A stretch of DNA of 64,000 nucleotides, from the IMG/VR virus record IMGVR_UViG_3300020420_000671; one strand, 5' to 3'. This document shows positions 3,329 through 59,089 of the stretch, piece by piece. A model generated the notes under the pieces. The model was not told the origin of the DNA, did no database searches, and saw only the letters and a list, made by a program, of their open reading frames with translations. Each line of letters opens with the position of its first letter. The stretch's first letter is position 1. The translations under genes and the position numbers were made by a program. The stretch is from a virus. Taxonomy: Duplodnaviria; Caudoviricetes.

Positions 3329-3613
3329 ATGCTAGTAACAGACATCACATCTACGGACCTAAACGAAAAACAGATCTGGGGCAGACGAGGTAAAAAACTT
3401 GTCAGAAAGTATAGATGTACCTCTGGACGTCGTAAAAATAGGATCGTCGCTAACATGTCTCAGTGCTTTGCCGCACCTAATATGAAGGCAAGGATGTCAA
3501 TGAAAAGAACCAGAGCTAGACTAGGCGCAAGGATTGTTAGAAAAGCACAGAGAACGAAAAGAACAAACCCAGCATCAATAGCATTAAAAAGACTTAACAG
3601 GAGAATCAAATGA
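3329..3613 (+). CDS. Small highly basic protein, paralog A
   Basis: RKYRCTSG-R-K-x-RIVA...C motif shared with the next ORF. Confidence 0.75.
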   Translation: MLVTDITSTDLNEKQIWGRRGKKLVRKYRCTSGRRKNRIVANMSQCFAAPNMKARMSMKRTRARLGARIVRKAQRTKRTNPASIALKRLNRRIK

Positions 3614-3930
3614 TAATTTCCGAAATAGTTGATGAAGGTGCTGTACAGATATTCGGTAGGAAAAAAGGAAAAGTTGTTCGTAAATATAGATGTACCAGTG
3701 GACAGAAAAAAGGCAGAATTGTCGCAAAACCACAAACCTGTAGTAATCCTATAAGGGTTTCGAGCAGGATAAGTATTAAAAAGGCAAAAGCTAGACGTAG
3801 TCCGTTAATTAAAGTAAAAACAAGATTCACTAAAAGGACAAGTCCTACAAGTCAAAGGTTACAAAGATTAAATGTATCTAGACTTAAACCAACAAAGCGT
3901 TCTATCAAAAAAACAAAGAGAATGAAATGA
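3610..3930 (+). CDS. Small highly basic protein, paralog B
   Basis: RKYRCTSGQKKGRIVA...C; ATGA overlap with the upstream gene. Confidence 0.75.
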   Translation: MIISEIVDEGAVQIFGRKKGKVVRKYRCTSGQKKGRIVAKPQTCSNPIRVSSRISIKKAKARRSPLIKVKTRFTKRTSPTSQRLQRLNVSRLKPTKRSIKKTKRMK

Positions 3931-14834: not shown

Positions 14835-15203
14835 ATGGCGGAAGCCATGTTGTTATTCATGTTGGTTATAAAACATGCCCTAGCTGATCTGGTACTACAG
14901 AGCAGACTTACTTCTGGAGACAAAAGCAATCTAAAGAGTTGGAAAGGTTACATACACGCAGGAGACCACGGCCTTCTTACGTTCGTTGTTCTCTTGTTCT
15001 TTACTACCTTTGAAAATTCTGTAATCATAGGCATGTTGGATTACGTGCTTCATTTCCTTATAGACTATATCAAAACTGTATTAGTAAGACGTTTTGGTGT
15101 AGTACAGAATAGCCGAACATTTTGGATTGTACAAGGTGTTGATCAAATAGCACATTATTCTTGTTATTTTCTTTACGTTCTTCTCTTGACAAATCTATTA
15201 TAA
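14835..15203 (+). CDS. DUF3307-like membrane protein
   Basis: KHALADLVLQ...HAGDHG...LHFLIDYIK...GVDQIAH. Confidence 0.75.
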   Translation: MAEAMLLFMLVIKHALADLVLQSRLTSGDKSNLKSWKGYIHAGDHGLLTFVVLLFFTTFENSVIIGMLDYVLHFLIDYIKTVLVRRFGVVQNSRTFWIVQGVDQIAHYSCYFLYVLLLTNLL

Positions 15204-15216
15204 GATGCTATAAATA
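15186..15216 (+). promoter_or_regulatory. Composite sigma70 and late promoter for the tmRNA
   Basis: TTGACA-17-TATAAA; the -10 extends to TATAAATA. Confidence 0.75.
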
Positions 15217-15220
15217 ATAC

Positions 15221-15283
15221 TACAACGTTGAAGCAATTCAAACGCTGGACAGGACCTGGGGGCAGTACCCAGCAGGTCCACCA
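15221..15283 (+). ncRNA. ssrA: Two-piece (circularly permuted) tmRNA, acceptor piece
   Basis: GGAC-CTGGG-GGCAGTA-CCCAG-CAGGTCC-A-CCA: alphaproteobacterial-type T-arm plus 3' acceptor strand with encoded CCA; 5' end approximate. Confidence 0.9.
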
Positions 15284-15296
15284 TAAGGACATTGCT

Positions 15297-15485
15297 ATGG
15301 AAGTCATTTGGCATATTCTACTTACGGTTTGTTTAGGTTCGACCTGCCTAGAGCAAGACGTACAAAGGTTTGAGTCCAAGGTAGAATGTTACAAAGTATT
15401 GAAATACTATGAAACAACACCAGCAGATGGTCGTTGGGACACAGTAGAATATATTTGTAAGCCAGTTGGCTCAGTGTCTTTATGA
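15297..15485 (+). CDS. 62-aa Cys-pair family protein inside the tmRNA intervening segment
   Basis: SD AAGGA just after the CCA; ATG 15297; MEVIWHILLTVCLG...FESKVEC...YICKPVGSVSL*; stop 1 nt before the tmRNA 5' G. Confidence 0.75.
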   Translation: MEVIWHILLTVCLGSTCLEQDVQRFESKVECYKVLKYYETTPADGRWDTVEYICKPVGSVSL

Positions 15486-15486
15486 T

Positions 15487-15711
15487 GGGCCTGAAATAGG
15501 ATCGACTGACGGATTAGTAGAAGAGTGGAGTTGTCCGGATGTAAGCTCGGTTAACGCGAACAAACGTTATAAATGCAAACGATAATGCATCAAACGTATT
15601 TTCTTTCGTAGATTTTTCTAACGCGAGAAAGTACGTGAATGAGGATTTCGCCTTAGCGGCTTAATCGCTCGGGGTTGGCAACTTACCTAGCAACAGAAAA
15701 GTTGCTTTTTT
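15487..15711 (+). ncRNA. ssrA: Two-piece tmRNA, coding piece
   Basis: 5' GGGCCTG pairs 7/7 with CAGGTCC including G3:U70; AAATAGGATCGAC D-loop region; resume context ATAAAT-GCA; ends in GCAACTT...GCAACAGAA...AAGTTGC-T7. Confidence 0.9.
15575..15664 (+). other. tmRNA tag reading frame ANDNASNVFSFVDFSNARKYVNEDFALAA*
   Basis: Translated by hand from resume codon GCA 15575 to TAA 15662-15664; ANDN start and ALAA end. Confidence 0.85.
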
Positions 15712-15723
15712 ATGGGAGCTAGT

Positions 15724-16554
15724 ATGAATATTGGAGTTAGAGGTAGCAAACTAGCAATTGAATATGCTAAACAAGTAGAAGCACAATGTTTTAACAGTTT
15801 CCATACCAATCTCATTACAATCAAAACAGACGGTGATATCTTTGAGAATAAAAGCATACAAGACATAGGCGGCAAAGGTGTTTTTGTTTCTGCTATTGAA
15901 CAGCAATTATTAGATAAAAAGATAGATGTTGCTGTACACTCTTTCAAAGATCTTCCTGCGGTAATGGATTCAAGATTAGAAATATCAGCAGTATTAGAAC
16001 GCAATGATCCGAGAGATTGTTATATTGGAACGTTGTTTCCGAAAGCTAAAGTAGGTACAGGTAGTCCTAGACGTATTGCCCAACTACAAACAAACTTCAA
16101 TGTAGACTTTGATATACAGCACATAAGAGGCAATATAGATACTAGAATAAAAAAGCTAGAACAAGGAAAGTATGACGCTATTGTTTTAGCAGTAGCAGGA
16201 CTAGAAGCATTGGGTTTACAACACAAAATTACAAAGATATTTCCATTTGATAAAATGTTGCCTTGTGTAGGACAAGGAGTAATAGCAATACAAACTAGAA
16301 AAGGATCATCGCATAGTGAGGTTGCGAAACTAAATAATCACTGGAATACATACTATTCTGTGATGGCTGAACGTGCTATGTTACAAGAGATAGACGGAGA
16401 CTGCCATACTGCCGTAGGTGCTATTTCTACTCTAGTTGGAGGCTGTATAAATTTAAAAGCAATAAATTATAATACAGGAAAACAGTTTGAGTCAACCAGT
16501 AAACTGTTAGAGTATAAATTATTAGGTGAGGAAGTAGGTAAACAGTTAAAGTGA
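15724..16554 (+). CDS. hemC: Hydroxymethylbilane synthase (porphobilinogen deaminase)
   Basis: GVRGSKLA, KTDGD, GGKGVF, AVHSFKD, VGTGSPRR, IRGNIDTR, GQG, AERA...GDC cofactor Cys; SD GGGAG before ATG 15724. Confidence 0.93.
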   Translation: MNIGVRGSKLAIEYAKQVEAQCFNSFHTNLITIKTDGDIFENKSIQDIGGKGVFVSAIEQQLLDKKIDVAVHSFKDLPAVMDSRLEISAVLERNDPRDCYIGTLFPKAKVGTGSPRRIAQLQTNFNVDFDIQHIRGNIDTRIKKLEQGKYDAIVLAVAGLEALGLQHKITKIFPFDKMLPCVGQGVIAIQTRKGSSHSEVAKLNNHWNTYYSVMAERAMLQEIDGDCHTAVGAISTLVGGCINLKAINYNTGKQFESTSKLLEYKLLGEEVGKQLK

Positions 16555-17531
16555 ATAAAAAATTTGAAAACGCCTGTAATAGGAAGAGCCAAAAAGTTCC
16601 TCCTATTTGGTTTATGCGACAAGCAGGTAGATATCATTCTCATTATAGAGATCTTAAAAAAGTAAACACATTCGAACTTTTATGTAAAACTCCGGAACTA
16701 GCCGCTGAAGTGGCATTAGGTCCTATAAAAGAATTTGATTATGATGTTTCAATATTATTTTCTGATATACTATTTCCTTTGGAGGGACTAGGCTTACCAT
16801 TAAGATTCGATCCAGGACCTAAGTTTCAGTTTAATCTTAGCAAAGATAATGTTAAACATCTGAGAGATGTTGATAAAGCAATTGAATTCCTTTCGTTTCA
16901 GAGAGATGCTCTTATAACAACAAGAGCAATACTGCCCAAAAGAAAAAGTCTAATTGGTTTTGTTGGAGGACCTTGGACATTAATGAACTATGCTTGTGGA
17001 AAAGCAAAAGTAACAGATAAGTTTAAATTAGATTATATGAAGTCTACTCTTATACCGTTACTAAAAAGAAATATAGAGTTACAGATAAATGCTGGTGCTG
17101 AGAAGGTTATGATTTTCGATAGCGGACTTCAAAACATGACGACTAAATTTTTTAATTCTAAATATTCTCCTTTATTGATGTCTTTGGCCATGCCACAAAC
17201 TGCTTACTATAGCAGAAACCTGCCCAGAAAATGTATCAATAAAGTAGTAGAAGGAGACTGGGGTGGCATAGGCGTTGATAGTAAGATAGACATAATAGAC
17301 TGTTTAGAAACTGTAGATAAAGGTTTTGTTCAAGGAAACTTTGATGAACGTAAAATGCTTTTACCTAAGTACAAGTTTATGTATGAAATAGAAAGATACT
17401 GTGACGATATTAGAAAATCAAAAGTTGACACAACAGGTTGGGTATGTGGATTGGGACATGGTATAGATAAGACGACTCCGGAAGAACACGTACATTTATT
17501 CATAGAAACTGTTAGAAACAGATTCTCATAA
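16551..17531 (+). CDS. hemE: Uroporphyrinogen decarboxylase
   Basis: PPIWFMRQAGRY, ILFSDIL, LIGFVGGPWTL, VQGN, GLGHGI; GTGA overlap with hemC. Confidence 0.93.
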   Translation: MNKKFENACNRKSQKVPPIWFMRQAGRYHSHYRDLKKVNTFELLCKTPELAAEVALGPIKEFDYDVSILFSDILFPLEGLGLPLRFDPGPKFQFNLSKDNVKHLRDVDKAIEFLSFQRDALITTRAILPKRKSLIGFVGGPWTLMNYACGKAKVTDKFKLDYMKSTLIPLLKRNIELQINAGAEKVMIFDSGLQNMTTKFFNSKYSPLLMSLAMPQTAYYSRNLPRKCINKVVEGDWGGIGVDSKIDIIDCLETVDKGFVQGNFDERKMLLPKYKFMYEIERYCDDIRKSKVDTTGWVCGLGHGIDKTTPEEHVHLFIETVRNRFS

Positions 17532-34233: not shown

Positions 34234-34308
34234 ATGGGTGTAGTGTTAATGGTAGCACGTCGGTCTCCAAAACCGAAAGTAGGGGTTCAAATCCTCTCAC
34301 CTATGCCA
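34234..34308 (+). tRNA. tRNA-Trp(CCA)
   Basis: ATGGGTG/CACCTAT acceptor stem, anticodon arm TCGGT-CTCCAAA-ACCGA, GTTCAAATC T-loop, encoded CCA. Confidence 0.95.
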
Positions 34309-38402: not shown

Positions 38403-38479
38403 CTTCTCGTAGCTCAGCTGGATAGAGCGTCGGTTTGCGGAACCGGAGGCCACAGGTTCGAATCCTGTCGGGAAGGCCA
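38403..38479 (+). tRNA. tRNA-Arg(GCG)
   Basis: CTTCTCG/CGGGAAG acceptor stem; anticodon arm TCGGT-TTGCGGA-ACCGG, anticodon 38437-38439; A20-type D-loop; GTTCGAATC; CCA. Confidence 0.92.
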
Positions 38480-39579: not shown

Positions 39580-39655
39580 GCTGGCATAGCTCAGCTGGTA
39601 GAGCAACTGATTTGTAATCAGTAGGTCCGCGGTTCGAATCCGTGTGCCAGCACCA
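39580..39655 (+). tRNA. tRNA-Thr(TGT)
   Basis: GCTGGCA/TGCCAGC acceptor stem; ACTGA-TTTGTAA-TCAGT anticodon arm; CCA. Confidence 0.96.
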
Positions 39656-50815: not shown

Positions 50816-50869
50816 AATGTATTTATTTACATTCGGATTGTAAAAGATTATATAAATACTAAGGAGCAG

Positions 50870-51202: not shown

Positions 51203-54200
51203 ATGGCTAGACAAGATATTTATTTAGGGGTTGAAGGTAACGACGGTACTGGTGATAGTATTCGTGAAGCATTTAAAAAAGCTAACGAAAACTTTACTGA
51301 ACTTTATGCTGTATTTGGACAAGGCGGAACAATCAGCTTTACAGCATTAAGTGATACACCCACAGCTATTACACCAAACGGACTTCTAATAGGTAACACG
51401 ACCGGAACAGAATTAATACAAAAAACATTAACAGGTGGTACAGGTATATCAATTGATAATACAAGTGCTACAAACATTACAATAACAAACACTGGTGCTA
51501 ATATTAATGCTGACACTAGTCCTATACTAGGTGGACCATTAAGTGGTAATGCTGTTTATCCTATAGGAAAAATTAACACATCTACTGCCGCTGTAGCAGA
51601 ATTTAATCAAACTCATGCTTCACAAATTACAATAGATGACCTTGTAACAGATAAAAAATATCAAGATAAAAATTACGCACCTCATACAGTCACACAAACT
51701 AATAAATCTGTGTATGCTAGATCTGAACCGACTAATGATGCGGAATACACACAAACAATTACAGAATATAGATCAGGTAACGTTGTAATATCCAACCATG
51801 GATTTGATAACAGCTTCAATGGTACACAATGGAAATATTCGACTACAAATACAGCACCAAATGGATTGACAAACAACACTGATTATTTTGTTAGATTTGT
51901 TTCTTCAGATCAACTCAGTCTACACACAACTAAAACTGAGGCACAAAATGATGACGATCTTACAAGAGTAAAAGTCAACATAGGTTTAGGATCAACAACT
52001 GCCGTAACAGGTACAGATGTAATTAAAGATCAAAGTTATAATGAAAGTTTATATGGTAATTACAGAATTGACGAAGTCATGCCGAGAAATGCTTCAGTTA
52101 GAAGACAGGGAGATGAATTAGCAGGACCTTTATATCTTTCAGACCATCCTGGTTATCTACAAGGCACTACAGGCCCTATAGAAGATAGACAAGCGGCTTC
52201 AAAACTTTATGTTGATAATTCTTCTTATGCGAGTACTGAAGATCTTTTTGTAACAAAACAAGGTGATGATACCCAAGCTAATACTCCAGTTGGTTTTGAA
52301 GGAAGAGGATTAAGCTATGCTTTTGGAAGTTTAAAAGCGGCGGCTTTAAAAGCACAAGAGATAATGGAGTCAGCACCAATAGAACCTGGTGCTTATAGAC
52401 AAACTATTACGTTCAATGCCGGCGACGGAATTTCATTAGTTACAAAATCTGAAACTAAAACACCTAACTCTGCGGCATCGAGTGCTATAAAATATTTACA
52501 AGGAAGTAAAAAGTTTGTACAAAAATCTGTAGTAGATTATGTAAAAGATAATTTTCCTACACACAGTTTCTTTGATACAAATGTTATTAATACAAACACA
52601 GAAAGTTTGTTATTTAAAAATAAAAAATTTATACAAGAAGAAGTTACAGCCTGGATTAATTATCAAATCAACACAGGAGCAACTGTAAGCTATAGTGATG
52701 GTACTGCTGACTTTACAGGATTCAAATACAGTTCAGCAAAATGTAAAAGAGATGTAGGATACATTGTTGACGCTTGGGAAAATGATTTAGCCAGAGGCGG
52801 AAACATTGAAACACGTAGAATAGCTTCAAGTTATCTAGCTGGTGCTGTGAATGCTGTAAACAAAAATACAAGTAACGCAGGTAATACTGTCAACCAAATA
52901 GCCCAAACAAATGCCGCAATCGAATTTGCTAGAGATTTAGTTAAGGATTATATTTTAACAGGAACAGCTTATCCTACAAAACAGGGATACTTCCAAGTTA
53001 ATGCTTCTAACTTAACTGGTACTGGTTTTAGATTTTATATTGGTACATCATCATACGCCAATGCTTATGTAAATGGTGGACTAGTTACCAAATCAGATGG
53101 AACACAACTTAACGTAAGCACATTCACATATGATTATACAACAGGATTTGCCGATGTAGTTACAACTACGACACATGGATTATCAGCAGGTAATACAGTA
53201 CAGCTAACTGGTATAAATGTTTCCTGTACATATGAAGGTTCAACACAGCAAAAAGTATATCCAGAACTTGTAAGTCAAGCAAACTGTTATAAATTTACAG
53301 TACAGAACACGGGTTACTTAGGAACAGCTCCTACATCAAATCAATTACAAATTTACGTAGGTCCAAGTAAGTACGGACACACTTATGTAAGTGGTGGTAC
53401 CATAAAAGGAACTTTAACAGAATTTTCTCCAACAGGAGCAACTTACAATCCTGCGACAGGAGATATGGTAATTACCATAGGTAACCATACCCTCACTACT
53501 TCTAACACAATTGAAATAGAACCAAACAGTTTTACGTTTACATGTGCCAAAGATAACAATGCTACATTACATTCTTATCCTAGAAAAGAATCTGTAACAT
53601 CATCGCCAAGCAGTGATCCAGCATACAATACAGCTTTAGCTATTACGGCAGTAGGCAGTACAACAATAACAGTTAATGTAGGTATATCTTCTGATACAAG
53701 TGTACACACTTTCGTAGGAGCAAGAACAAATGCTGTCAAGTATTACTCAGAAAGTAACACAATTACTGGTTTCAATTATAGTAACACAACAGGTTATGCT
53801 ACAATAACAACTTCAAATACACATAGTTTAGTAGCAGGAAACAAAGTCGAATTAGCTGACATTTATCTATCTTGTACAGCACCAACAGCAAGTAATACAT
53901 ATTACCCACAACCAATTTACGCAGATTACGGAACTGGTAACAAAGATATTCCTGGTAGAGCAAATACTCTTACAGAACTTATTGTAGATGTGATTGCTAA
54001 TGGATTAGGAAAAGTGCCTGCTCCAGTACAACCAGAAAAAGCTAACAACACTTGTGAAAGAGATTTGGGACTTATAATCGATGGTATGATAATCGATATT
54101 AGAAACGGAACAAATTCAAACTTCAACGCATTACAAGCGGCCAAGAGATATTTCAGTACACCTAGTGGAGCAAAAGCAAGAATAAGTCAAAAGACAGAAA

Positions 54201-57200
54201 CACTTGCGGCTATAACAAAAGCAAAATCCTATGTTAGAAGCGTTGTTTCTAATACAGATTTAAAAAGACAATCAAGATTATTCACAGTTGAAAGTGCTAA
54301 TTTATCAGGCACACAATTCCAAGTTGCCGTAGGTACTTCTAATACAGTTCATACTTACATCAGAGGTGGTACTGTTACTTTTGGAAATCAACAGTTTGCT
54401 ATAAACAATTTTGCTTATGATAATGTTACAGGAAAAGGTTTAATAACTACTACAACCACACACGGATTAACCACAGGTAATGTTGTTCAATTAGACGGTA
54501 TTGTATTTGAATGTAATACCGGTATCAAGGAGTATCCAGGAGAATTTTCAACAGACATTCCACAATACTTAGATAGCACTCTTTCAACAGTATCTGATAC
54601 AATTAAAAACGCATTAGATAATCAGTTTGATATTATTTTAGATATTTTAACAAACGGCTTTACAGCAGTAGATACTTATACAGTGGTTGAAGGTAGTACA
54701 TACAAGATTCAATTTAGTAATGGTGGATCAAACTACTACACTGACCAAGGTATAAACAGTAACGTAGATATTCTTCCAGGAAAAATTATTGTAGGTAAAA
54801 CTACCGGAGCAAGAGGTAGAATTGTAAAATATACAAGTGGTGTAGATTTAGGTAACGTTGCTTACGACGAAGTTGAAGTTGTATTAGTTGAGCCAAAAGA
54901 ATTTAGAATTGGTGAAGAACTAGAATATGGTAACGGAACAAAAGAGAAACAAATTTGTATCCATGTTGAATCAGGAATATACTACGAAGATTATCCTATT
55001 AAAGTTCCTGACAACGTATCAATTAAGGGAACAGACTTTAGACGTTGTCAAATCAGACCGGCACCGAGAATTTCTCAATCACCTTGGGCTAAAACTTATT
55101 TTTATAGAGATAAACTTTTAGACAATCTACAAATTACAGACTTTACCGGAGCAGACATTGCTACGGCACAAGATATTACAATTACAGGTACTAATGAAGC
55201 AGGCGGAGTTATTACTGTTACTCCAGCAGACAATATCGCTCCTATTGCTTGGGACGGTGCTTGGTTCTATACAGACAACGGCGCAGTTGGATTAATTTCA
55301 AACGCTGATGGTGGAAGTGACTTCAATGTTACTTTGACTGTAGATATTTTACCAAACTTGTCTAATATAAGTTCAGGTGCTTGGCATGTTAAGAAAACTG
55401 TCAATTACGGATATCACTATCTAACTGATCCAGGTGACGCAACTAGTGTGGCCAAACGTAACGACCAAATGGATGTATTCTTAATGAATGATGCTACAAG
55501 GTTAGCAAACATGTCATTCCAAGGACACGGTGGTTTTGCTCAGGTACTTGATCCAGCAGGACAAGTTCTTATTAAATCTCCATACACACAGGTTTGTGGA
55601 TCATTCTCAGGAAGTGTTAACAAACAAGCATTTAGAGGTGGTATGTTTATTGACGGTTTCTCAGGAAACTTAGAAACTGTTATCACAAGCAAAGATGACA
55701 ATTATACATTGAATGTTCAATCAGCTGTCGGAACAGGTTTGAGAATAAGAAAACCACAAACACCTGCTCCGTTCTTTATTAACGGTGTACGTTATCAGGT
55801 TGATGCTATATCAGAATATGATGGTGGAGCAGGAACAGGTAAACTTTTAATCAACAAACTTTCAAACGAAGGAAACGGCTACACTGATGCTATTCCAGGA
55901 AGTGGTACAGCTATATTCATTCAGACTGCTGGTAATAGGTCAATGTTGGCAAATGACTATACTCAGGTTAACGACTTAGGTTACGGATTATTTGTTAACA
56001 ACGCAGGTCTTTCAGAACAAGTTTCAACATTCACATACTACAACCACATAGCGTTCTTTAGTAACAACGGTTCAGAGATTAGAGCTCTTAACTGTTCTAA
56101 CGCAAATGGTAACTTTGGTTTAGTTGCGGCAGGATCAGATCCAAATGAAACTGTTGATGCTATTACTTCATTAAGAACTATGCAACAGCCTGCTAAGGTT
56201 TACAATGATGCTAGTAACACATACGGCTTCGGTGCTATTTCACATGCGGCTGGTGTTAACACAATCCATTTATATGATTGTGATTACCATCCATATCCTA
56301 ACAGTTTAATTGATGTTTACACTAGGGATGGAAGCGGAAACATCACAGCATTGAACACATATGAAGTCACAGCGGTATCGGCACTATCTGTTCCTACTTC
56401 TAACTCAGGAGGATACACGGGTGCTACAGGTCCTACAGGACGTAAAGGTGCTAACCAAACAATTTACAGATGTAACATATCAGGTGATACTGGATTAGCA
56501 AGTGCCATTACAGGTGACCATAATGTAAACTTGGCATCAGATGCTTCTCCTTACGTGATAATGAGAATGAATAAAAACCACTTGTTCTCAGGAGTATCAG
56601 GTGTTACAAGTATTAGACCATCAACAGCTTTGATATTTGATGAAAACTTAGATCAAGTTTATAGAACAATTAGCTTCAACAATCAAGACTCTGATAACAG
56701 TGCACTTGCGGCTGATAGGTTCCAAATAGTTTTTGATTCAGGATTTAAACATCTAAACCTTACAGTAAATCAAACAGAAGCTGTGAATAACACATACGCT
56801 GGTGCTGGTACAACAATGGGAGCAACGGTAGGTGACGTTGTAATTGCTATTGAAAAACTAACAGCGGCAGGTATTGCTAGAATCAATAATAACGATATGA
56901 TATTTGCTTGGGGAGGTAAACTTCACCAAGTATCAAACTACACGGATAGAACAACATTCGCTACAATTAATTTGTCCGATGTTGCGGCTTCTAATATTAA
57001 TAGTAATAACGGATTGTACACTGGTTCTGGTATAGCTAAAAAGGTTTATAGTGCTGGCGGAACTACAGCGATTACATTGACACTATCATTAGCGTCAAAT
57101 GAAGCGGCTAACATAACAGTTGGTATTTCAACATTAAGAGCAAACGGACATGACTTTGATAAAATTGGTACTGGTGGATTTAATACTACTAACTATCCTA

Positions 57201-59089
57201 GCATTATTTACGGTGAACCAGTTAACTCAGCTACACAGGCAAATGAAGTAAACGAAAGAGGAAAAGGTAGAGTATTCTTTGCTTCTACAGACCAAGACGG
57301 ATTCTTTAGAGTTGGTAAGTTCTTCAGTGTTGACCAAGGAACAGGTACAGTTACTTTTGCGGCATCGATTGCTATTAGTAACTTAGATGGACTAGGCTTT
57401 AAGCAAGGTGTTAGAATTACAGAATTTAGTAACGATGATACAATGGCAGATGCTGATCCAGCCGCGGTACCTACAGAATTTGCCGCTGAAGCATTCTTGA
57501 CAAGAAGATTACATTTCGATAGAACAGGAGCTTTACAAACAGTTGGTACAATAGGTCCTGGTGCGTTAGCAAGAGACGGTACAACACCTTTAACAGGAAA
57601 TTTAAATGCTGGTGGAACTAATAAAATATTTAACATGGCGGACCCAACCAATCAACAGGATGGGGCAACTAAATCATATGTAGATGCTAGAACTCCATTT
57701 GGCTCAGAAGCTATAGGAGTTAACATTGCCAACAGACAAACAAATGACTTCTTGGCATATACTGGTTCTAGTTACGACAACGTTACTCCAGCAGGTGACA
57801 TTGGCATTAGTGTCACAGGAAATATCGCTACATTTTCAATTACAGCAGATTCTATTGTAAACGCTGATGTAAACACAAACGCCGGTATAGCTCAAAGCAA
57901 GTTGGCAATGAATGCGGCAACTACAAGAGCTAATTCTACAGGCATTGCTCAAAGTGATTTAGGACTAGCAAGTTTTGACTCAGGTGACTTTACTGTAACA
58001 AATGGTTTTGTAACTTTAAAAGAAGGTAGTGTTGATTACGCAGACTTACCTGATATGGCGGCAAAAACTGTACTAGCAAATATAACCGCAGGCACAGCAG
58101 ACACAGTTGCAGTTACTATTGATGATTTAATTGACAACTATAGTAAATTCACAACTACTGGTGTTGCTTCTAGAATTGTACAAACTGGTACAGATGGTAG
58201 TATAGACGCACAGAAATTTAAACTTGATAACTATGATATCTTAGACCAAACTAACTTAACAATGACTCTTAAAACACCTGGTGGTGCTAAGGTATTTGAT
58301 ACTGTCGGATCAGTAGCAAGTAACACAACTACAACATTCCCAGGTACTATACAGATAGGTGACACAGATACTGCGGCATCTTTCTTCCAAAAGAATAGTA
58401 GCTATGGAGATCCAAGTGATGCTACACTTAACGAACCAAGATTAGCAAGTGATTGGGTATACACTTCATTTATAGAAGCTCCAGGAGAAAAGGGAGCATC
58501 TTCAACAGGTATAGCTGTAGGAGCAGGTACAGGATTTACAGCCGCAGGTGAAATAGCAGTCATAGCAAACAACAATGTGGCGGCTATTAAATTTACACAA
58601 ACAGCGGCAAGCCCTTCAAGTAATAATGGATATGCTTTAGGAACATCTGCTTTAAGATATTCTACAGTTTATGCTACAGCATTAGATGGTTTGGCAACTT
58701 CAGCAAAATACGCTGACTTGGCAGAAAACTATCTAGCAGATAATGATTACGAAGTAGGAACCGTGCTTATATTTGGTGGTGAACAAGAACTTACTACAAC
58801 AAATATTAAGGGAGATACCAAGGTAGCAGGTGTTGTTTCAGAAAATCCAGCACACTTAATGAACAGCCAATTAGAAGGTGACCATGTTACGCCATTGGCA
58901 CTACAAGGTAGAACTCCTTGTAAAGTAATTGGCACAGTCAAAAAAGGTGACATGATTGTTACAAGTGCGGTAGCAGGATACGGTATGGTAAACAACGTAC
59001 CAGGTATAGGAACAATAATTGGTAAAGCAGTGGGCACAAAAGATGATGACGGACATGGCATTGTTGAAGTTGTGATAGGGAGAGTATAA
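51203..59089 (+). CDS. Giant (2628 aa) tail/baseplate fibre protein
   Basis: gp9/gp10-type N-terminus (GNDGTGDSIREAFKKANENFTELY), internal repeats, beta-helix-like region, C-terminal ADLAENY..D..YE.GTV...ALQGR.PCKV chaperone-like domain. Confidence 0.85.
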   Translation: MARQDIYLGVEGNDGTGDSIREAFKKANENFTELYAVFGQGGTISFTALSDTPTAITPNGLLIGNTTGTELIQKTLTGGTGISIDNTSATNITITNTGANINADTSPILGGPLSGNAVYPIGKINTSTAAVAEFNQTHASQITIDDLVTDKKYQDKNYAPHTVTQTNKSVYARSEPTNDAEYTQTITEYRSGNVVISNHGFDNSFNGTQWKYSTTNTAPNGLTNNTDYFVRFVSSDQLSLHTTKTEAQNDDDLTRVKVNIGLGSTTAVTGTDVIKDQSYNESLYGNYRIDEVMPRNASVRRQGDELAGPLYLSDHPGYLQGTTGPIEDRQAASKLYVDNSSYASTEDLFVTKQGDDTQANTPVGFEGRGLSYAFGSLKAAALKAQEIMESAPIEPGAYRQTITFNAGDGISLVTKSETKTPNSAASSAIKYLQGSKKFVQKSVVDYVKDNFPTHSFFDTNVINTNTESLLFKNKKFIQEEVTAWINYQINTGATVSYSDGTADFTGFKYSSAKCKRDVGYIVDAWENDLARGGNIETRRIASSYLAGAVNAVNKNTSNAGNTVNQIAQTNAAIEFARDLVKDYILTGTAYPTKQGYFQVNASNLTGTGFRFYIGTSSYANAYVNGGLVTKSDGTQLNVSTFTYDYTTGFADVVTTTTHGLSAGNTVQLTGINVSCTYEGSTQQKVYPELVSQANCYKFTVQNTGYLGTAPTSNQLQIYVGPSKYGHTYVSGGTIKGTLTEFSPTGATYNPATGDMVITIGNHTLTTSNTIEIEPNSFTFTCAKDNNATLHSYPRKESVTSSPSSDPAYNTALAITAVGSTTITVNVGISSDTSVHTFVGARTNAVKYYSESNTITGFNYSNTTGYATITTSNTHSLVAGNKVELADIYLSCTAPTASNTYYPQPIYADYGTGNKDIPGRANTLTELIVDVIANGLGKVPAPVQPEKANNTCERDLGLIIDGMIIDIRNGTNSNFNALQAAKRYFSTPSGAKARISQKTETLAAITKAKSYVRSVVSNTDLKRQSRLFTVESANLSGTQFQVAVGTSNTVHTYIRGGTVTFGNQQFAINNFAYDNVTGKGLITTTTTHGLTTGNVVQLDGIVFECNTGIKEYPGEFSTDIPQYLDSTLSTVSDTIKNALDNQFDIILDILTNGFTAVDTYTVVEGSTYKIQFSNGGSNYYTDQGINSNVDILPGKIIVGKTTGARGRIVKYTSGVDLGNVAYDEVEVVLVEPKEFRIGEELEYGNGTKEKQICIHVESGIYYEDYPIKVPDNVSIKGTDFRRCQIRPAPRISQSPWAKTYFYRDKLLDNLQITDFTGADIATAQDITITGTNEAGGVITVTPADNIAPIAWDGAWFYTDNGAVGLISNADGGSDFNVTLTVDILPNLSNISSGAWHVKKTVNYGYHYLTDPGDATSVAKRNDQMDVFLMNDATRLANMSFQGHGGFAQVLDPAGQVLIKSPYTQVCGSFSGSVNKQAFRGGMFIDGFSGNLETVITSKDDNYTLNVQSAVGTGLRIRKPQTPAPFFINGVRYQVDAISEYDGGAGTGKLLINKLSNEGNGYTDAIPGSGTAIFIQTAGNRSMLANDYTQVNDLGYGLFVNNAGLSEQVSTFTYYNHIAFFSNNGSEIRALNCSNANGNFGLVAAGSDPNETVDAITSLRTMQQPAKVYNDASNTYGFGAISHAAGVNTIHLYDCDYHPYPNSLIDVYTRDGSGNITALNTYEVTAVSALSVPTSNSGGYTGATGPTGRKGANQTIYRCNISGDTGLASAITGDHNVNLASDASPYVIMRMNKNHLFSGVSGVTSIRPSTALIFDENLDQVYRTISFNNQDSDNSALAADRFQIVFDSGFKHLNLTVNQTEAVNNTYAGAGTTMGATVGDVVIAIEKLTAAGIARINNNDMIFAWGGKLHQVSNYTDRTTFATINLSDVAASNINSNNGLYTGSGIAKKVYSAGGTTAITLTLSLASNEAANITVGISTLRANGHDFDKIGTGGFNTTNYPSIIYGEPVNSATQANEVNERGKGRVFFASTDQDGFFRVGKFFSVDQGTGTVTFAASIAISNLDGLGFKQGVRITEFSNDDTMADADPAAVPTEFAAEAFLTRRLHFDRTGALQTVGTIGPGALARDGTTPLTGNLNAGGTNKIFNMADPTNQQDGATKSYVDARTPFGSEAIGVNIANRQTNDFLAYTGSSYDNVTPAGDIGISVTGNIATFSITADSIVNADVNTNAGIAQSKLAMNAATTRANSTGIAQSDLGLASFDSGDFTVTNGFVTLKEGSVDYADLPDMAAKTVLANITAGTADTVAVTIDDLIDNYSKFTTTGVASRIVQTGTDGSIDAQKFKLDNYDILDQTNLTMTLKTPGGAKVFDTVGSVASNTTTTFPGTIQIGDTDTAASFFQKNSSYGDPSDATLNEPRLASDWVYTSFIEAPGEKGASSTGIAVGAGTGFTAAGEIAVIANNNVAAIKFTQTAASPSSNNGYALGTSALRYSTVYATALDGLATSAKYADLAENYLADNDYEVGTVLIFGGEQELTTTNIKGDTKVAGVVSENPAHLMNSQLEGDHVTPLALQGRTPCKVIGTVKKGDMIVTSAVAGYGMVNNVPGIGTIIGKAVGTKDDDGHGIVEVVIGRV

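Follow-up and report, generated by a model that had tools for sequence, protein, structure and literature searches.

A permuted two-piece tmRNA gene of a marine T4-like phage whose spacer appears to double as a conserved small protein gene

Work published by Buchholz et al. describes a two-piece ssrA of the alphaproteobacterial (alpha) type in the OM43 phage Melnitz and in related marine myophages (Buchholz et al., 2022; PMC9004378), and phage two-piece tmRNAs are thus not new as a kind. Permuted tmRNAs were found in 17 of 47 Melnitz-related contigs, and 53 two-piece tmRNAs were counted among 18,146 phage genomes (PMC9004378). Caulobacter provides the paradigm of the two-piece molecule (Keiler, Shapiro and Williams, 2000, as cited in PMC9004378). 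The passages of the 2025 tmRNA database article on which we draw give 79 phage tmRNAs, together with a survey of 11,946 permuted tmRNA sequences in which one spacer holds an intact tRNA-Ala gene and another a repetitive element; these passages mention no protein gene in a spacer (PMC11915505), whereas the spacer described here holds one that appears to be under selection. When we searched Melnitz, its ssrA matched both Rfam models used below (106.7 and 113.4 bits) and encodes the tag ANDNYVPVDYALAA. A glutamine riboswitch (RF01739, 52.8 bits) lies just 3' of it, a feature stressed for Melnitz and not presented as group-wide (PMC9004378).

The gene under study lies in the DNA of an uncultured marine T4-like myophage, of which we analysed one stretch of 64 kb, hereafter the window. 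Upstream of the tmRNA gene are nrdA, nrdB and genes for a glutaredoxin and a DUF3307 membrane protein; downstream are hemC (porphobilinogen deaminase) and hemE (uroporphyrinogen decarboxylase). The window also encodes a DNA ligase, virion structural and tail-fibre families, and three tRNA genes called by ARAGORN. NrdA is 69% identical to proteins of cyanomyophages and of the pelagimyophage Mosig. When 25 kb of the window were compared with isolate phages by megablast, only nrdA-level similarity (around 72%) appeared, and thus no close cultured relative. Fourteen metagenome runs, drawn from 10 studies, contain the stretch, and one of these runs may be the source of the window itself; this recurrence excludes an assembly artefact.

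A first-pass annotation, made from the letters alone, had proposed a circularly permuted two-piece tmRNA gene at this locus. ARAGORN predicts a permuted tmRNA at 15189–15755 with the tag ANDNASNVFSFVDFSNARKYVNEDFALAA, and both Rfam models match over their full length and above their gathering cut-offs: alpha_tmRNA (RF01849) at 15182–15708 with 91.5 bits and E 1.5e-23 (cut-off 50 bits), and tmRNA_permuted (RF04321) at 15222–15664 with 91.2 bits (cut-off 47 bits). Two of the checks that the annotation had suggested, ARAGORN and the alpha_tmRNA model, therefore return the gene that it described, of the type and at the place that it gave. The order of the parts is permuted, since the CCA end at 15283 precedes G1 at 15487. 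As the annotation had read from the sequence, the two halves pair at 7/7 positions in the acceptor stem (CAGGTCC, 15273–15279, with GGGCCTG, 15487–15493), including the G3:U70 pair. Directly 3' of CAGGTCC, ACCA (15280–15283) provides an A discriminator and an encoded CCA. The tag ORF that had been noted coincides with the tag frame called by ARAGORN, and the terminal stem plus U tract was recovered by the terminator scan as a hairpin followed by a T run, its stem-loop sequence being kept in the aligned relatives. Upstream of the resume codon, where PK1 is expected, the Rfam alignment shows a small hairpin. In the minimum free energy (MFE) fold of 15215–15575 (-109 kcal/mol, z -3.5) the T arm and the acceptor stem both form, as does a further helix that closes the spacer. 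The annotation had added that standard tools often miss such genes; this does not apply to the present one, which ARAGORN and Rfam both find, and is borne out among its relatives, about a dozen of which have both halves and are missed by ARAGORN. The features are collected in Table 1.

Table 1. Parts of the predicted tmRNA gene and of the gene nested in its spacer (positions in the window)
Feature	Position	Strand	Basis
Promoter: -35 TTGACA (15186–15191), 17-nt spacer, TATAAATA (15209–15216)	15186..15216	+	Read directly
Acceptor piece (3' tRNA-like half)	15222..15283	+	Rfam alignments, ARAGORN, covariation in 27 distinct relatives
P2, 5' strand	inside acceptor piece, 15222..15283	+	
T arm	stem 15256–15260/15268–15272, loop GGCAGUA 15261–15267	+	
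Intervening segment, 203 nt, missing from the mature tmRNA	15284..15486	+	
Closing helix, 11 bp	15284–15294 x 15472–15482	+	MFE fold, comparison with relatives
Nested gene, 62 codons and TGA, four-cysteine mini-protein	15297..15485	+	Translation, homologues, dN/dS
Coding piece (5' tRNA-like half and mRNA-like domain); in order: acceptor 5' strand (15487–15493), D-loop analogue, P2 3' strand, resume GCA (15575), 3' domain, terminator	15487..15711	+	Rfam alignments, alignment with relatives
Tag frame, 29 codons (ANDN...FALAA) and TAA	15575..15664	+	ARAGORN, alignment
Intrinsic terminator, hairpin with 6-bp stem and 6-nt loop, then T run	hairpin 15689–15706, T run to 15711	+	Terminator scan

The locus resembles that of Melnitz in its alpha-type permuted tmRNA, the T-loop GGCAGUA, the TTGACA-N17-TATAAATA promoter, the position of the closing helix and an ANDN...ALAA tag. 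Both phages are T4-like marine myophages, and neither Melnitz nor the present window has smpB. For the window, where the first-pass annotation had also reported none, tblastn with two alphaproteobacterial SmpB proteins gave only matches with E above 1 (best E 1.2), while the positive control worked. The two loci differ in their gene neighbourhood, in the length of the tag (14 residues in Melnitz, 29 here) and in the glutamine riboswitch, which Melnitz has 3' of ssrA and for which a search of the window with RF01739 found nothing, even with E allowed to reach 1. They also differ in the place of a small gene: gp85 of Melnitz adjoins ssrA upstream, whereas its counterpart here is inside the spacer. 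Compared with cellular alphaproteobacterial tmRNA genes, the present gene shares the permutation, the alpha-type T loop, G3:U70, an ANDN...ALAA tag and the full-length match to RF01849, but it belongs to a phage genome of lytic type, has a far longer, protein-coding spacer and a promoter with a T4-late-type octamer, and is without a linked smpB.

To which host the gene points is a separate matter. The first-pass annotation had taken the tmRNA to identify the host class, an inference that is unsafe because Melnitz carries the same alpha-type ssrA and infects OM43, a member of the Methylophilales and hence a non-alphaproteobacterium (PMC9004378). In our searches the T-arm motif was found mostly in alphaproteobacterial genomes, Pelagibacteraceae included, a distribution that speaks to the ancestry of the gene and not to the present host. 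Blastn of the tmRNA pieces against 80 cellular loci with the T-arm motif pointed to no donor or host: the matches were short and confined to the tRNA-like end, the mRNA-like piece having none. Alpha-type ssrA is common to a wide group of marine T4-like phages.

The protein encoded in the spacer was used to retrieve 80 IMG/VR loci, and both tmRNA halves could be located in 52 of them. Removing the spacer left 27 distinct tmRNA sequences, which we examined for covariation against a consensus structure. Acceptor pairs 4, 5 and 6 show compensatory changes (CG/GC, CG/GC/UA and UA/CG, respectively) and are paired in 27/27. Three T-stem pairs covary, again with 27/27 paired. In P2, five of the six predicted pairs covary with 27/27 paired and the sixth is held in 23/27. 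G3:U70 is invariant throughout the 27. Since its acceptor stem, T stem and P2 covary across these relatives, selection maintains the gene as a two-piece tmRNA.

The TTGACA-N17-TATAAATA element occurs once in the 64 kb, with 0 matches expected from 100 shuffles. In TATAAATA a sigma70 -10 (TATAAA) can be read that overlaps with a late-promoter octamer of the T4 type. Nearly all other sigma70-like -10 elements of the window end in T (TATAAT, TATAGT, TATATT); that of the tmRNA promoter ends in A, and it is this A that creates the T4-late octamer. Because it demands T at the last -10 position, a general promoter scan passes over the tmRNA promoter. In some 30 distinct upstream sequences, TTGACA, a 17- or 18-nt spacer and TATAAATA precede the T arm by 38–43 nt; the promoter spacers and flanks of these sequences have diverged, and the motif is retained. 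The combined sigma70/late element announced by the first-pass annotation is thus present and conserved in these diverged contexts, and a dual promoter, fitting early and late expression, is plausible on this evidence. We also considered an argument for late promoters from enrichment across the whole window and rejected it: TATAAATA is not over-represented (6 found, 9 +/- 3 expected), and the conservation argument alone stands.

About the content of the spacer the first-pass annotation was silent. A conserved ORF nearly fills it, occupying 93% of the 203-nt intervening segment. Its product is 57% identical to Melnitz gp85 (E 2e-27), and relatives of it are encoded at all 80 of the loci mentioned above. 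Across 36 aligned homologues 22 residues are invariant, the four cysteines among them. Within the class of loci in which the ORF is nested in a tmRNA, the median dN/dS is 0.18 and the variable sites number 25/13/43 at the three codon positions. AlphaFold2 models the protein with a pLDDT of 89.8 as beta-beta-alpha-beta. The family has no match in Pfam or PHROGs, a Foldseek search of the PDB returned no hit at E <= 0.001 (best E 0.46), and the sole strong match among AlphaFold clusters is an uncharacterised 65-aa homologue, which leaves no informative fold match. Going by the conserved homologues, the dN/dS values and the confident predicted fold, we consider that the spacer ORF is a real, selected protein gene.

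The signals of this gene are built into the structure of the predicted precursor RNA. Between the acceptor stem and the closing helix lies a 4x4 internal loop, with ACCA opposite UGAU. A closing helix of 9–12 bp is found at the same position in 52/52 tmRNA-bearing relatives, with many compensatory changes between classes. Within the nested class one pair of the helix runs through the series U-A, U.G and C-G, which switches a codon between Met and Val. In the nested class the 5' strand of the helix reads UAAGGACAUUG and contains the Shine-Dalgarno sequence, here AAGGA (15285–15289). Its 3' strand contains the last four sense codons (15471–15482), which read S-(V/M)-S-L in the nested class. The stop codon TGA (15483–15485) comes after the helix, with a single nucleotide between it and G1 of the tmRNA. 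Since the ribosome-binding site is buried in an 11-bp helix of the folded precursor, translation of the nested gene may be inefficient; with the Shine-Dalgarno sequence in the 5' strand, ribosomes would have access to the site only as long as the 3' strand is still to be transcribed. For this reason one and the same transcript probably undergoes mini-gene translation and tmRNA maturation either in succession or as alternative, competing fates.

Bacterial 23S rRNA intervening sequences, such as those of Leptospira and Coxiella, carry an ORF of the S23p family, and their excision is usually credited to RNase III cutting the closing stem. The likeness is that of a stem-closed segment, cut from a stable-RNA precursor, with a small ORF inside. 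The spacer described here differs from them in the RNA that hosts it, in the ORF family, and in that one of its ends would be set by RNase P.

The 80 loci show several arrangements of the mini-gene. At 25 loci or more it is inside the tmRNA spacer; these comprise four acceptor-stem variants and intervening segments of 202–205 nt, and the stop codon is always exactly 1 nt before G1. It lies immediately upstream of ssrA, as in Melnitz, at 9 loci (8 from IMG/VR and Melnitz), and some 400–500 nt upstream of ssrA at about 20. About 10 loci have it between tRNA-Thr(UGU), which ends 13–20 nt upstream of the ORF, and tRNA-Leu(UAG), which starts -1 to +6 nt from the stop codon. The remaining loci of the 80 have no RNA gene next to it. 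In a tree of the ORF, the nested, tRNA-flanked and Melnitz-like layouts are interleaved within a single supported clade, and at least two changes are required to explain the nested state; the tree has 189 columns only, and we claim no direction for the changes of layout. Because the tmRNA halves occupy the place that tRNAs take in other phages, the comparison suggests that tRNA-type processing sets the ends of the small messenger.

As an independent sample we fetched 120 viral contigs by the T-arm motif alone and located both halves in 90. The spacers of these 90 phage tmRNAs measure 3–266 nt (median 84 nt), and many are short and without an ORF. Long spacers in this sample are commonly filled to 74–96% by an ORF, and at least seven unrelated ORFs end 1–8 nt before G1. 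One family of spacer ORFs, found at 9 loci, is a membrane peptide of 38–44 aa. The 142-nt spacer of Melnitz is itself open in one frame, unannotated in the published record; 38 residues of this frame align at 68% identity with a 52-aa ORF found in the spacers of two other contigs. In the limited set of literature that we consulted we found no description of protein genes in tmRNA spacers, nor any report of the variant seen here, a conserved protein gene built into the processing helix of the spacer.

We consider it very probable, on these comparisons, that the locus is a functional alpha-type permuted phage ssrA whose spacer doubles as the messenger for the conserved four-cysteine protein. A single transcript would start at the TTGACA-N17-TATAAATA promoter and end at the terminator near 15711. 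In this precursor the acceptor strands would pair (7 bp, with G3:U70) and, past the internal loop, the 11-bp closing helix would continue the structure. Host RNase P would most likely cleave 5' of G15487, and host 3' processing would most likely expose the CCA at 15283; the spacer would be freed, while the acceptor and coding pieces would stay joined via the acceptor stem and P2. Charging would fall to host AlaRS and delivery to host SmpB, which we propose as the carrier because the window is without smpB. Stalled ribosomes would then have the 29-residue ANDN...FALAA degradation tag appended. The spacer would also be the messenger for the conserved protein of 62 aa.

A more far-reaching proposal is that one transcript is both messenger and stable-RNA precursor with the two roles coupled, and that tRNA-like structures punctuate small genes in marine phages; we put it forward tentatively and regard it, taken whole, as rather doubtful. 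Ribosomes would load only before the closing helix forms, so that each pre-tmRNA would give a brief burst of protein and then mature. The RNase P cut would leave a mini-messenger ending 1 nt past the stop codon. In the relatives flanked by tRNA-Leu the cut may fall inside the stop codon and produce a natural, nearly non-stop substrate for trans-translation. Punctuation by tRNA-like elements, the tmRNA halves included, would resemble the use of tRNAs in mitochondria.

The emphasis could also be reversed, the tRNA-like halves serving mainly as processing punctuation that releases or regulates the mini-gene messenger, with trans-translation secondary or absent. Real tRNA genes flanking the same ORF in about 10 relatives agree with this, as does the interleaving on the ORF tree of tRNA-flanked, tmRNA-nested and Melnitz-like layouts. 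We nevertheless judge it improbable: the resume codon, the open tag frame and the ALAA end are intact in the relatives called by ARAGORN, P2 and the T arm covary as those of a working tmRNA would, and many phage tmRNAs of the same type have short spacers without any ORF to punctuate.

The integrity of the tmRNA parts also bears on whether the RNA might act as a decoy or modulator of host trans-translation, which would titrate SmpB or AlaRS or retarget tagging through its long tag. The tag frame is complete and has a canonical protease-recognition end, and the tRNA-like domain is complete and has the alanine identity pair; these parts are what an active tmRNA needs and go beyond what a decoy needs. 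Such a role is therefore highly improbable in our estimation, even with three observations that would suit it: no smpB accompanies the gene in the window or in Melnitz, tag length ranges from 9 to 29 residues among close relatives, and the CDS-less tmRNA of mycobacteriophage DS6A is cited as inhibiting host tmRNA (in PMC11915505). A last account would make the gene a dead passenger, a non-functional fragment of host ssrA acquired by the phage. Fragments of ssrA do occur in prophages, the gene being a common integration site (PMC9004378), but here dozens of diverged phage contigs keep the halves, promoter, closing helix, tag frame and terminator, with compensatory changes, and RNA-library contigs of four studies include the stretch. 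This account is strongly disfavoured, and we give it next to no chance.

Taken alone, the tmRNA is one more member of a published group. What a working tmRNA with a protein-coding spacer would add is that the supposedly discarded stretch of such a permuted gene can serve as a selected messenger, one whose translation signals are embedded in an RNA-processing helix and whose mini-gene, in related phages, takes the corresponding place between tRNAs. Experimental confirmation would make the locus a compact example of transcripts put to two uses in bacteria and phages. For host prediction the locus advises caution, as alpha-type ssrA moves among marine T4-like phages, including a phage of a non-alphaproteobacterial host. 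Annotators have a reason to check tmRNA genes for internal ORFs, the unannotated frame in the Melnitz spacer being a case in point.

Six seawater metatranscriptome runs contain 28–44% of the words sampled from the stretch. We aligned RNA-library contigs from four runs of four studies; being assembled, such contigs show no RNA ends, strand or level. One, at 15316–15670, bridges the nested ORF and the coding piece, and another spans 15150–15500, both of them assembled contigs for which DNA carry-over is possible. A third covers exactly 15495–15674, coordinates that, in an assembled contig, cannot be read as RNA ends. These contigs give a weak hint that the region is transcribed. A gap in cover beyond 15716 in the RNA runs was rejected as evidence, as the contigs continue into the different downstream sequence of relatives (loose ends at 15705).

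The tag frame opens with GCA at 15575, an alanine resume codon, and ends in FALAA-TAA. It is open from GCA to the ...ALAA stop in all relatives called by ARAGORN. At 29 residues the tag far exceeds the length seen in close relatives: an in-frame insertion of 57 nt lengthens it in the window and in its two nearest relatives, and close relatives without this insertion have tags of 9–13 residues. A second sub-group, missed by ARAGORN, has a different insertion and a 24-residue tag ending in IAA.

We ran ARAGORN on six IMG/VR loci that encode relatives of the mini-gene nested in the tmRNA spacer (L010-L012, L014, L015, and L017), and no tmRNA was called in any of them. All six nevertheless contain both the acceptor and the coding piece of the tmRNA; the acceptor strands pair 7/7, and the nested ORF is in place. 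The tag frame comprises 24 codons and ends with the residues IAA in two of them (L010 and L014). Annotation pipelines based on ARAGORN will thus overlook this sub-group.

The spacer of the two-piece tmRNA of Melnitz, the published OM43 phage (L001, 3277-3418, 142 nt), also contains a frame open throughout, which is not annotated in record MZ577097. A 52-aa ORF fills the tmRNA spacer of two further viral contigs (L139 and L173) and shares 68% identity over 38 residues with this frame. According to the published description (PMC9004378), the tmRNA itself is the target of regulation by the Melnitz glutamine riboswitch. Since this element is situated beyond the alpha_tmRNA match and immediately precedes the downstream genes, it may regulate these genes rather than the tmRNA. 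The window has two genes directly downstream of its tmRNA: Pfam matches identified a porphobilinogen deaminase (hemC, E 4e-63) and a uroporphyrinogen decarboxylase (hemE, E 4.6e-56), neither of which matched a PHROG family. Tetrapyrrole-synthesis genes such as these appear unusual in phage.

Positions of features in the window and in compared loci
Feature	Sequence	Position	Strand	Remark
hemC + hemE	window	15712-17531	+	directly 3' of tmRNA; Pfam
tRNA-Trp(CCA)	window	34234-34308	+	
tRNA-Arg(GCG)	window	38403-38479	+	
tRNA-Thr(UGU)	window	39580-39655	+	
sigma70-type promoters (examples)	window	12642, 19276, 19655, 21461, 25104, 34888, 35525, 46853, 49258	+	
ORF of 2,628 codons	window	51203-59089	+	
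glutamine riboswitch	L001 (Melnitz)	3598-3646		3' of tmRNA, beyond alpha_tmRNA match, directly 5' of downstream genes
mini-gene ORF end	L013, L016, L018, L019, L026	399 or 1689		

In five loci encoding mini-gene relatives flanked by tRNA genes (L013, L016, L018, L019, and L026), the TAG stop of the mini-gene and the first base of tRNA-Leu(UAG) share 1 nt. Judging from this overlap, an RNase P cut at the tRNA would then leave the mini-gene messenger with an incomplete stop codon, an arrangement reminiscent of tRNA punctuation in mitochondria. The window carries three tRNA genes, among them tRNA-Thr(UGU), which flanks the mini-gene in other phages, whereas in the window the two are 24 kb apart.

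Near-consensus sigma70-type promoters (TTGACA-N17/18-TATAAT-like) are common in the window, with 21 on the + strand and 7 on the - strand. This abundance, mostly on the + strand, fits what would be a long early-gene block read by unmodified host polymerase. The 2,628-codon ORF, preceded by an exact TATAAATA at 50851 and a small gene, probably encodes a giant late protein with a structural or fibre role.
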